64,000 nucleotides of DNA. Origin: Escherichia coli. Lineage in GTDB: Bacteria; Pseudomonadota; Gammaproteobacteria; Enterobacterales; Enterobacteriaceae. The DNA lies in NCBI RefSeq assembly GCF_003334355.1, contig NZ_QOWP01000014.1. The stretch is one strand, 5' to 3'. The position numbers and the translations under genes were made by a program. The notes below the pieces were generated by a model that saw only the letters and a program-made list of their open reading frames with translations, had not been told where the DNA came from and made no database searches. Shown in pieces: positions 36,091 through 39,658 of the stretch; the first letter of the stretch is position 1; each line of letters starts with the position of its first letter.

Positions 36091-36288
36091 ATGTCAGAAA
36101 CTATTACGGTGAATTGCCCAACCTGCGGGAAAACGGTGGTGTGGGGTGAAATCAGCCCGTTTCGGCCATTTTGCTCCAAACGTTGTCAGCTGATCGACCT
36201 CGGAGAATGGGCTGCTGAAGAAAAACGAATCCCCAGCAGTGGCGATCTTTCCGAAAGCGATGACTGGAGCGAAGAGCCAAAGCAGTGA
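36091..36288 (+). CDS. yacG: DNA gyrase inhibitor YacG (zinc finger)
   Basis: ORF-track 65 aa with CPTCGK...CSKRCQ zinc-binding cysteines; recognised as YacG. Confidence 0.93.
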
Positions 36289-36304: not shown

Positions 36305-36510
36305 CACGTAGGCCTGATAAGACGCGGGCAGCGTCGCATCAGGCATCTTGTGCAAATGTCGGATGCGGCGTGAACGCCTTATCTGACCTACAAAAACAAA
36401 TTTATCAATGAGTTATAAATCCCTGTAGGCCTGATAAGACGCGCCAGCGTCGCATCAGGCATCGTGTGCGAATGTCAGATGCGGCGAAAACGCCTTATCT
36501 GACATACACA
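36305..36510. repeat. REP cluster (four REP units, two BIME-like pairs) between yacG and mutT, last unit overlapping the mutT 3-prime end
   Basis: Alternating gtaggcctgataagacgcg...gcgtcgcatcaggc and ggatgcggcg(tg/aa)aacgccttatctgac(c/a)taca units read directly from the sequence. Confidence 0.8.
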
Positions 36511-36893
36511 CGCTTAAGCTTCGCAATTACCTGTTCATTGGCTGGCGGAAACTCATCGGCATTAAGACCGACCAGCGACATCCACTCACCGGGTTGCCCT
36601 TCTTTACCCCACGGCTCCCCTTCCCAGCGTTCGACCAGCCAAAACCACAGTGTTATATGCCTGTCCGGGAATTCATATTCCAGTTTTTCAAATAGCGAAA
36701 AATGTTGGGGGGTAATCCCGACTTCTTCCTGAAGTTCACGCACCACCGCCTGTTCCGGCGTTTCACCCATTTCAATTTTACCGCCGGGAAACTCCAGTTT
36801 ATTCGCCATGTGCGCATCTGCTGCGCGACGCGTTATAAAGATTTCATTGTTCTCGTTGCGAATAATACCTACCGCAATTTGCAGCTTTTTCAT
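36495..36893 (-). CDS. mutT: 8-oxo-dGTP diphosphatase (Nudix)
   Basis: ORF-track 132 aa; Nudix box GGKIEMGETPEQAVVRELQEEVG; C-terminus runs into a REP element and ends ...KRVYVR. Confidence 0.93.
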   Translation of the reverse strand: MKKLQIAVGIIRNENNEIFITRRAADAHMANKLEFPGGKIEMGETPEQAVVRELQEEVGITPQHFSLFEKLEYEFPDRHITLWFWLVERWEGEPWGKEGQPGEWMSLVGLNADEFPPANEQVIAKLKRVYVR

Positions 36894-36906: not shown

Positions 36907-36936
36907 TAAAAAAGGCGCAGAATCCTGCGCCTTTTA
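36907..36936 (-). terminator. Rho-independent terminator after secA (before mutT)
   Basis: aaggcgcag-aatc-ctgcgcctt 9-bp stem; on the minus strand followed by ttttttatagg. Confidence 0.65.
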
Positions 36937-36952
36937 CTTTAACAGTTAGCTT

Positions 36953-39658
36953 TTATTGCAGGCGGCCATGGCACTGCTTGTATTTTTTACCAGAACCGCA
37001 CGGGCAAGGATCGTTACGTCCTACTTTGCGCTCTCCAGTTTGCGCCGCCAGTGCAGCTGCGGCTGCAGAGTCGTCATCCTGATGGCTAAGCTGCTGCATT
37101 TGCGCTAAACGCTCGGCTTCCATACGACGCTGTTGTTCCAGCTCCTCAACCTCTTCAGGCATACGTACCTGGACTTTGCTCAACGTGCTGATAACTTCAT
37201 ATTTTAACGACTCCAGCATCGCTGCAAACATGGAGAACGATTCACGTTTGTATTCCTGCTTCGGATCTTTCTGTGCGTAGCCACGCAGGTGGATACCCTG
37301 ACGCAGATAGTCCATCGCTGCCAGGTGCTCTTTCCACAGGGAGTCAAGCGTTTGCAGCATGACGCCTTTCTCGAAGTGACGCATCATCTCAGCACCAACC
37401 ACTTCTTCTTTACGCTGATACACTTCGATGGACTGCGCCAGAATTCGCTCACGCAGCGTCTCTTCATGCAGTTCTGGTTCTTTATCCAGCCACTCGGCAA
37501 TTGGCAAATCGAGGTCGAAATCGTTCTTCAGACGTTCCTGCAGCCCCGGAATATCCCACATTTCTTCCAGCGACTGTGGTGGAATGTAGGCATCAATGGT
37601 CGCTTTGAACACATCTTCACGAATGCTGTTAATGGTTTCGCTCACATCGCTGACATCCAACAGTTCGTTACGCTGGGAGTAAATGGCGCGACGCTGATCG
37701 TTAGCCACGTCATCATATTCCAGCAGTTGCTTACGAATGTCGAAGTTACGGCTTTCAACTTTACGCTGGGCGTTGGCAATCGCTTTAGTCACCCACGGGT
37801 GTTCAATGGCTTCGCCTGGCTTCATACCCAGTTTACGCATCATGCCGGATACTCGGTCGGAAGCAAAAATACGCATCAGCGCATCTTCCATCGACAGGTA
37901 GAAACGGGAAGAACCAGCATCCCCCTGACGACCAGAACGACCGCGCAACTGGTTATCGATACGACGGGATTCGTGACGCTCGGTACCGATGATATGCAGG
38001 CCACCTGCTTCCAGTACCGCATCGTGACGTACCTGCCAGTCGGCTTTAATTTTTTCAATTTGCTCTGCGGTCGGATTTTCCAGCGCGGCAACTTCTGCCT
38101 GCCAGCTACCACCGAGCACAATATCTGTACCACGACCCGCCATATTGGTCGCGATAGTCACCGCAGCCGGATAACCTGCCTGAGCAACAATCGCCGCTTC
38201 GTTGGCGTGGAATTTGGCGTTCAGGACGTTGTGCTTAATACCGGCTTTGGTCAGTTCGTTTGACACCAGCTCCGATTTTTCGATGGAGATAGTACCCACC
38301 AGCACCGGCTGGCCTTTCGCAGTACGTTCTTTGATATCTTCAATGATCGCCTGAATTTTTTCCGCTTCAGTCATGTAGACCAGGTCCGGCAGATCTTTAC
38401 GAATCATTGGACGGTTGGTCGGAACAACGACGGTATCCAGCTTGTAGATTGAGCTAAATTCGAAAGCTTCGGTATCAGCAGTACCGGTCATCCCCGCCAG
38501 TTTTTCATACAGACGGAAGTAGTTCTGGAAGGTGATCGAAGCCAGCGTTTGGTTTTCGTTCTGGATCTGCACACCTTCTTTCGCTTCCACAGCCTGGTGC
38601 AGACCATCGGACCAGCGACGGCCCTGCATGGTACGACCGGTGTGTTCGTCAACGATGATAACTTCACCATCTTTAACGATGTAGTCGACGTCACGGGTAA
38701 ACAGCGCATGAGCGCGCAGCGCCGCCGTTACGTGGTGCATCAGCATGATGTTGGCCGGAGAGTACAGAGACTCCCCTTCATCCATGATGCCCTCTTTCAC
38801 CAGCAGTTCTTCAATCAGCACCAGACCACGTTCGGTCAGGTTCACCTGGCGAGATTTTTCGTCCACCGAGAAGTGGCCTTCGCCCTGGAAGGTTTCGGAG
38901 TCTTCTTTTTCCTGACGGATCAGGTGCGGAATAATTTTATTCACGCGTTTATACATTTCCGAGCTGTCTTCTGCCGGGCCGGAAATGATCAGCGGTGTAC
39001 GCGCTTCATCGATCAGGATGGAGTCCACTTCGTCCACCAGCGCATAGTGCAGTTTACGCTGTACACGTTCTTCAGGGCTGAACGCCATGTTGTCGCGCAG
39101 GTAGTCAAAGCCGTATTCGTTGTTCGTACCGTAAGTGATGTCAGCTGCGTAAGCTTCGCGCTTTGCCGGTGCTGGCATGCCCGGCAGGTTGATACCGACA
39201 GTCAGGCCAAGGAATTCAAACAGCGGACGGTTGTTTTCGGCGTCACGTTGCGCCAGGTAGTCGTTGACGGTAACTACGTGCACGCCTTTACCGGTTAGTG
39301 CGTTCAGGTAAGCAGGCAGCGTTGCGGTCAGGGTTTTACCTTCACCGGTACGCATTTCGGCGATGCAGCGTTCGTTAAGAACCATACCGCCGAGTAACTG
39401 AACGTCGAAGTGACGCATACCAAAGACGCGCTTACTTGCCTCACGTACCACGGCGAAAGCTTCCGGGATCAGATTTTCCAGCACTTCGCCTTTTTCCAGA
39501 CGTGCACGAAACTCTGCGGTTTTCCCTTTCAGTTCTTCGTCGGAGAGTTTTTCCATCTCCGGTTCCATGGCATTGATGATGTTGACCACTTTGCGCATCC
39601 GGCGCAGGGTGCGATCGTTACGACTACCGAAAACTTTAGTTAATAATTTGATTAGCAT
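36953..39658 (-). CDS. secA: preprotein translocase ATPase SecA
   Basis: ORF-track 901 aa; C-terminal zinc-binding [14 protein letters not shown]; recognised as SecA. Confidence 0.98.

Follow-up and report, generated by a model that had tools for sequence, protein, structure and literature searches.

In the window, the 64,000-nucleotide stretch of Escherichia coli DNA analysed here, the convergent genes yacG and mutT leave a gap of 206 nt between their stop codons, and this gap is occupied by a REP cluster made up of two BIME units. The features of the locus are as follows.

36091..36288 (stop codon 36286-88), plus strand: yacG, convergent with mutT (ORF list; RefSeq annotation of an identical segment)
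36308-36345, plus strand: Y REP of the yacG-proximal BIME unit, which spans 36308..36391 (repeat and pattern location)
36357-36391, minus strand: Z2 REP of the same unit, with intact GTAG (repeat and pattern location; Rfam naRNA4, 71.4 bits)
36392-36424, no strand assigned: 33-nt linker between the BIME units, with an IHF-consensus match inside
36425-36461, plus strand: Y REP with intact GTAG, partner of the Z2 REP in the mutT-proximal unit (repeat, pattern and Rfam)
36473-36507, minus strand: mutT-proximal Z2-type REP of 35 nt, sense sequence GTATGTCAGATAAGGCGTTTTCGCCGCATCTGACA (pattern, direct repeat and naRNA4 hairpin 1)
36495..36893, minus strand: mutT CDS for 8-oxo-dGTP diphosphatase, 132 codons plus stop (ORF list, NF008044, match to PDB 1mut)

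The translated tail of the window gene reads ...NEQVIAKLKRVYVR. The protein scored 244.2 bits against the NCBIfam equivalog model NF008044 (cut-off 148), which places it in that family over residues 1-129, and 230.1 bits against TIGR00586 (cut-off 97.9) over residues 1-128; neither of these MutT family models reaches residues 130-132. The translation contains the Nudix box GX5EX7REUXEEXGU as G38-KIEMG-E44-TPEQAVV-R52 E53 L54 Q E56 E57 V G59 I60. The alignment to K-12 MutT (P08337; PDB 1MUT and 3A6S) runs over the whole of residues 1-129 with 126 of 129 identities, and the window protein differs by D114E, P121Q and L129V and by the added Y130-V131-R132. These last three residues are outside every solved MutT structure in the PDB. 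A CDS identical to the window gene is annotated in strain 214-4 as WP_000736008.1. The 8-oxo-dGTP hydrolysis and antimutator role of the 132-residue variant is assigned by its likeness to the characterised 129-residue enzyme. The substitutions D114E and P121Q (window 36534-36551) flank N119 and occur in no other sampled allele or outgroup.

A REP is defined as an imperfect palindrome of 30-40 nt with a mismatch bubble and a highly conserved GTAG 5' of the palindrome foot (PMC3333891). Five REP-consensus matches were found in the 64-kb window against 0.42 expected by chance, and the 621-nt segment used as a query had a median of 13 matching places per genome, as a repeat with many copies would, with four units in the cluster itself. 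On the mutT sense strand, naRNA4 (Rfam RF02564, gathering score 59.5) matches 36428-36504 with 78.7 bits and 36311-36388 with 71.4 bits, both over the full model (positions 1-77 of 77), which identifies both units as Z2-linker-Y BIMEs. The mutT-proximal REP is 91% identical to the neighbouring copy at 36329-36392 and forms the typical palindrome with a stem, the AA/GC bubble, a second stem and a loop. Its head, at 36504-36507, reads GTAT. GTAG is kept in the other three REPs of the cluster, in the homologous K-12 REP and in three of five outgroups, the other two having TTAA; the mutT-proximal unit is a mutated REP copy rather than a canonical one.

The linker between the units contains a predicted IHF site, an exact pattern match of the consensus WATCAANNNNTTR to TATCAATGAGTTA at 36403-36415, and IHF sites in BIME L linkers have been described (PMC3333891). 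A scan of the REP cluster for intrinsic terminators found none; thus any termination there would be of REP or Rho type. Strains differ in how many BIME units they carry here: O157, HS and A32 have a single one, K-12 and the window have two, and 1504D004 has three. In E. coli PT62 (NZ_CP090448.1), the IS110-like element IS621 is inserted about 210 nt downstream of mutT, directly after the GTAG of the second Z2 REP of the same cluster (TTTTTGTAG|ATACTG...); this strain also has a rare CTG TAT mutT tail (KRLYVG). On the other side of the gene, the Salmonella sRNA family STnc40 of Rfam gives a full-length match on the minus strand at 36908-36977 (84.7 bits, gathering score 45), which spans the secA stop codon and the secA-mutT intergenic hairpin.

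Two in-frame stop codons in the mutT-proximal REP

The end of the reading frame maps onto the REP as listed below, all on the minus strand and from the codon map unless stated otherwise.

36510-12: R128
36507-09: V129 (GTG)
36509: linked substitution, sense G (GTG, V129) where K-12 has C (CTG, L129) (alignment, linkage census)
36504-06: Y130 (TAT)
36504: stop-loss site, sense T (TAT), as against G or A (TAG/TAA) in K-12 and every outgroup Escherichia (alignment, tails)
36501-03: V131 (GTC)
36498-500: R132 (AGA)
36498..36506: the three added codons Y130-V131-R132 (TAT GTC AGA), in the 5' arm of the REP stem
36495-97: the used stop codon TAA (codon map; Rfam alignment, model positions 8-10; fold)

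The K-12 gene is a 390-nt CDS (WP_000736007.1) whose 129-residue product ends in KLKRL, and its 3' end reads AAA CGT CTG TAG, as against AAG CGT GTG TAT GTC AGA TAA in the window. The change at 36504 converts the REP head from GTAG to GTAT. Since the K-12 TAG stop is itself the TAG of the conserved GTAG head, both alleles terminate within the REP. A Z2 REP with this head carries two stop codons in the same frame, nine bases apart (G-TAG-GTC-RGA-TAA), so that loss of the first shifts termination exactly three codons downstream. In the window, the REP holds the third base of codon 129 as well as codons 130-132 with the stop that follows them. According to the Rfam alignment, the UAA belongs to the conserved GAUAAGG, its U forming the last pair of the outer stem and its AA the conserved internal bubble.

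The first-pass annotation had described a mutT frame ending in IAKLKRVYVR, with its last codons and TAA inside the first REP, and had taken the K-12 protein to be three codons shorter and to end in KLKRL. The translation of ORF 36495..36893, the REP at 36473-36507, WP_000736007.1 together with all 23 E. coli MutT entries in the PDB (129 residues each), and the nucleotide alignment bear out this description. Its conclusion that the strain is not MG1655 agrees with a comparison of the 621-nt segment, which is 98.4% identical to K-12 with 10 differences and 100% identical to strain 214-4, an independent complete genome; only 36 records are at least 99% identical to it. A single substitution had been proposed as the cause. 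TAG>TAT alone does abolish the stop, but the two alleles differ by two linked substitutions. The idea that a REP supplies coding sequence to mutT holds as well and can be refined, in that the K-12 stop is REP sequence too.

Direct reading of 20 E. coli sequences showed how closely the two sites are associated. All 129-residue alleles read CTG TAG, while in the 132-residue alleles codon 129 is GTG or GTA and codon 130 is TAT or TAC, two CTG TAT cases apart. All 132-residue alleles in this set stop at codon 133, either with TAA or, where the REP carries a 1-nt deletion (GGATAGG instead of GGATAAGG), with TAG, the stop thus being retained across the deletion.

Taken together, we consider that the window carries a natural 132-codon stop-loss allele of mutT that ends in the REP, and we assign this reading a probability of roughly 0.88. 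On this reading, a Z2-type REP lies flush with the 3' end of mutT in Escherichia and its GTAG supplies the stop, G being the third base of codon 129 and TAG codon 130, as in K-12. A G>T change has produced GTAT, so that the ribosome reads three codons of the REP stem (Tyr-Val-Arg/Gly) before terminating at a built-in back-up stop, the TAA of the conserved GATAAGG. The stop loss travels with L129V, caused by C>G five bases upstream, as an old and frequent haplotype, present in about 37% of complete genomes and presumably moved between backgrounds by homologous recombination. The window strain combines a K-12-like mutT body with the stop-loss tail, plus D114E and P121Q. Judged by sequence, the extension is probably near-neutral for the enzyme, because residues 130-132 lie beyond the family models and structures and enterobacterial tails are variable.

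A predicted hairpin across the termination site

In the mutT transcript, the REP stem is predicted to be prolonged by pairing between the end of the coding sequence and the linker. The elements of this fold are listed here.

36463..36512, minus strand: predicted extended hairpin, the REP stem plus nine extra pairs
36477, minus strand: sense U in the 3' arm where K-12 has C, pairing with the A at 36500, with which the R132 codon AGA begins (alignment, folds)

The nine extra pairs join coding CGUGUGUAU (36504-36512) to AU[UC]GCACACG of the linker (36463-36473). Both allele-defining substitutions turn mismatches, G-A and C-C, into predicted pairs. The calculated energy of the window fold is -30.6 kcal/mol (z -5.96) versus -17.0 kcal/mol (z -1.2) for the K-12 equivalent, and that of O157 (132 residues) is -28.0 kcal/mol versus -22.0 kcal/mol for HS (129 residues). 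At the stem pair 36477/36500, K-12 has an A-C mismatch (GTCAGA/TCCGAC), O157 a G-C pair and the window an A-U pair (GTCAGA/TCTGAC), so in the folds the C>U change at 36477 looks like a compensatory one. Because codon 132 starts with the 5' partner of the pair, this position also sets whether the C-terminal residue is Arg or Gly. A stronger hairpin was considered as a general property of the 132-residue form and rejected, as it holds only in matched pairs; over 25 sequences, the ranges of the two classes overlap (-13.9 to -22.0 kcal/mol for 129 residues, -17.2 to -30.6 kcal/mol for 132 residues).

If the extension has any effect, we infer that it would act through the modelled REP hairpin covering the termination site. 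An alternative is that the allele is adaptive, having been selected because the substitutions remove two mismatches and so make the hairpin over the termination site longer. MutT dosage would then change through an effect on ribosome stalling with tmRNA tagging, on protection of the mRNA 3' end or on termination. The much stronger fold predicted for the 132-residue allele in matched backgrounds, the further compensatory C>U in the 3' arm of the window and the great rarity of intermediates are consistent with such selection. REPs no more than 15 nt from a stop codon reportedly cause ribosomes to stall and reduce translation (Liang, Rudd & Deutscher 2015, as relayed in PMC12306157). By the distance given in that relayed account, mutT is an extreme case, with the stop inside the REP in both alleles, and by distance alone its REP may be likened to the translation-regulating REPs of those authors. 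A different route to selection would be that GTAG>GTAT shields the REP from the REP-associated transposase. GTAG is required for binding and cleavage by TnpA-REP (PMC3333891), a requirement derived from mutants of the whole GTAG (GTAG>ACGA and others) rather than from GTAT. Of the GTAG and stem mismatch that TnpA-REP needs, the mutT-proximal REP retains the bubble and has GTAT as its head, and by analogy it is probably no longer a substrate of this transposase (RAYT).

Several observations speak against selection. Two sites 5 bp apart would stay linked without it, and with two substitutions only, both could quite readily have created pairs by chance. Other 132-residue alleles fold weakly, at -17.2 to -21.5 kcal/mol, and overlap the 129-residue range. 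REPs between convergent genes have been proposed to act as bidirectional terminators and stabilisers, and their effects depend on context, with no general effect on half-life (Harris et al. 2026). We regard an adaptive origin of the allele as unlikely.

Polarity, linkage and frequency of the stop-loss allele

Outgroups were taken from a scan of species-representative genomes. All five other Escherichia (E. albertii, E. sp. E1V33, MOD1-EC7003, E. whittamii and SCPM-O-B-8794) encode 129 residues, and in each of them codon 130 is TAG or TAA and is followed directly by REP sequence of the form gtcRgataaRg. Because five outgroup species stop at codon 130, this stop is ancestral for the genus and the 132-residue form a derived stop-loss; on these comparisons, "extension" is the correct polarity. 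Salmonella has no REP at the mutT 3' end, and its MutT tail is different. Across Enterobacteriaceae, MutT comprises 129-135 residues, and past ...PVIxKL its sequence is poorly conserved.

In other genera, mutT has independently come to take its stop from a palindromic repeat, and REPs are used there in the same two ways as in E. coli. In C. amalonaticus S646 the gene ends ...caggccggaTAAggc within a REP, a Citrobacter MAG uses a REP in ending with ctgTAGgccggataagg, and in many Enterobacter species the TAG consists of the first bases of a different palindromic unit (TAGgcctgctaagcgaagcgccagcaggc). The scan also returned a MutT 79% identical to that of E. coli on a 424-nt low-coverage contig (QXHL01000193.1) labelled Alicyclobacillaceae bacterium I2511, which is probably enterobacterial contamination of a Firmicutes assembly.

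The reverse polarity would make the 132-residue form ancestral, with a derived nonsense truncation (TAT>TAG) in K-12 and phylogroup A/B1. It would fit the presence of the longer form in the most divergent sampled E. coli alleles (92.9-95.8% identity to the window), and the extension codons show the pattern of old coding sequence, with synonymous variants (TAT/TAC, GTG/GTA) and a stop kept across the 1-nt REP deletion. Against this stand the codon-130 stop of all five non-coli Escherichia, the identity of that stop with the GTAG head by which E. coli REPs are canonically defined (PMC3333891), and the GTAG retained in the neighbouring REP copy of the cluster; moreover, both linked substitutions would have had to revert. 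A truncation in the K-12 lineage is therefore very unlikely as an account of the two forms. Within E. coli proper, the ancestral state could nonetheless have been 132 residues or polymorphic, as the longer form is present in ABU 83972, O6:K2:H1 and O157:H7. We take ABU 83972 and O6:K2:H1 to belong to phylogroup B2 and O157:H7 to phylogroup E, lineages presumably placed basally in E. coli, as is usual.

In a gene tree of codons 1-128, the 129- and 132-residue states are interspersed; O157 (132 residues), for example, groups with HS (129 residues). Recombination was read from mosaic patterns in about 400 nt. The window gene is identical to K-12 over nt 1-342, and the differences are confined to nt 343-390, with five differing sites, and the intergenic region, which suggests that this part is a short imported or locally diverged tract. 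EM10-18-28 (129 residues) combines a D-like body with a K-12-like tail and intergenic region and is, to judge from this mosaic, visibly a recombinant. One and the same protein body can be found with either tail, a pattern suggesting that recombination has shuffled them: the HS body is found with KRVYVG on at least 1000 contigs and with KRL as RefSeq WP_000736013.1 in four sampled genomes, and the O157 body with either of these tails on at least 1000 contigs each. Intermediates that differ by a single step are rare, with 7 contigs for the HS body and KRV, 1 contig for the K-12 body and KRLYVR, and 27 contigs for the PT62-type KRLYVG. Linkage of the two substitutions is thus very strong but not absolute. 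The simplest reading of these sequences would be one old two-substitution haplotype spread by homologous recombination, with occasional recurrent single mutations.

A quasi-palindrome template switch that copies the opposite arm could in principle create the double substitution repeatedly, in a single event each time, which would account for its presence on several mutT backgrounds. Both changes raise complementarity to the 3' flank of the REP, and gene bodies of K-12-like, HS-like and D-like type all show the pair. In a templated tract spanning both sites, however, the non-complementary positions in between would have been corrected as well and the 2-nt bulge copied, and the observed GTGTAT is not the predicted complement of the 3' flank. 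With these mismatches and the bulge left uncopied, and with recombination sufficing as seen in EM10-18-28, a template switch was rejected as the main explanation and is highly improbable.

To return to the stop-loss haplotype, its frequency was determined in 5,426 complete E. coli genomes by megablast with 30-nt queries and an exact word of 28 nt. Each 30-mer match contains an exact 26-nt core that includes codon 130, with at most one place per genome and query; the 30-mers define codon 130 only, and the stop at codon 133 was checked in 13 TAT/TAC sequences. The counts were as follows.

TAG state (K-12-type stop): 1817 + 1377 + 75 = 3269 genomes, 60.2%
TAT/TAC state: 564 + 937 + 144 + 136 + 207 = 1988 genomes
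CTG TAT: 3 genomes
Stop-loss combined: 1991 genomes, 36.7%
Left unassigned by the 30-mer census: 166 genomes, 3.1%

GTG TAG was found in 0 of the 5,426 genomes in this 30-mer census. The VYVR tail of the window (TAT GTC AGA TAA GGCGTTTTC) occurs in 64 genomes (1.2%), including 214-4 and many O145:H28. The first-pass annotation had allowed that K-12 and most strains might carry the 132-residue protein and had asked whether the extended allele is common. With 60.2% of complete genomes in the 129-residue state, the former does not apply; the extended class is common at about 37%, and its VYVR tail is rare among complete genomes. In a collection of 15 billion proteins, the exact window protein is present on at least 1000 contigs, as is the K-12 protein. 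One K-12-type and two HS-type mutT 30-mer matches came from records labelled as plasmids; these may be F-prime-like elements, or the label of the replicon may be wrong. That the extension results from faulty sequencing, assembly or annotation of the window can be given practically no credence and was ruled out, as we found nothing in support of this, whereas the independent complete genome 214-4 carries the identical 621-nt segment, 64 complete genomes share the tail and about 2,000 the TAT state, the exact protein recurs on those contigs, and PGAP annotates mutT genes of 399 nt.

Relation to known REP-encoded stops and significance

[quoted passage not shown] 2013, PMC3733652). The mutT locus resembles these cases in that the GTAG head provides the stop in K-12 and the outgroups and the REP encodes the last three residues in the window. 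It differs from them in that a single locus of one species shows the two states side by side as a high-frequency polymorphism, and in that the fallback to a second in-frame stop in the same REP (TAG...TAA, 9 nt) is explicit. A literature search on mutT combined with REP and stop codon found no paper on the mutT case.

The cluster also shares with BIME/naRNA4 elements (RF02564; PMC3333891; Qian et al. 2015, PMC4550694) the palindromes with AA/GC bubbles, the alternating orientation and the number of one to three units, whereas its mutT-proximal Z2 REP has GTAT and is partly translated. naRNA4 itself stems from REP325, another locus, and an HU-binding processed RNA has been shown only for REP325; the role of naRNA4 with HU in the nucleoid is disputed (Harris et al. 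2026).

The 132-residue MutT is already known in the sense that PGAP routinely annotates it (WP_000736008.1 and others) and that it is contained in UniRef. The mutT stop-loss is a real observation, correctly read, and an ordinary one. Its value is that of a clean example of a REP that lies flush with a gene and supplies its stop, in which two in-frame stop codons probably make loss of the first one harmless. It can also serve as a strain marker, with K-12-type tails in 60% and stop-loss tails in 37% of complete genomes and VYVR in about 1%. In addition, the textbook 129-residue MutT of structural work is not the form present in a large fraction of natural isolates, the 132-residue form being carried by sampled genomes of the O157:H7, O145:H28 and ABU 83972/O6:K2:H1 types.

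Beyond this, the allele is of interest only if it alters MutT dosage or activity, and otherwise matters little. On the predicted folds, the stop-loss haplotype might be regulatory, with a REP frozen with respect to its transposase, a termination site deep in a stronger hairpin and lineage-specific MutT levels; we hold this to be very doubtful indeed. If it were true, different MutT levels would lead to different baseline rates of A:T>C:G mutation between E. coli lineages.
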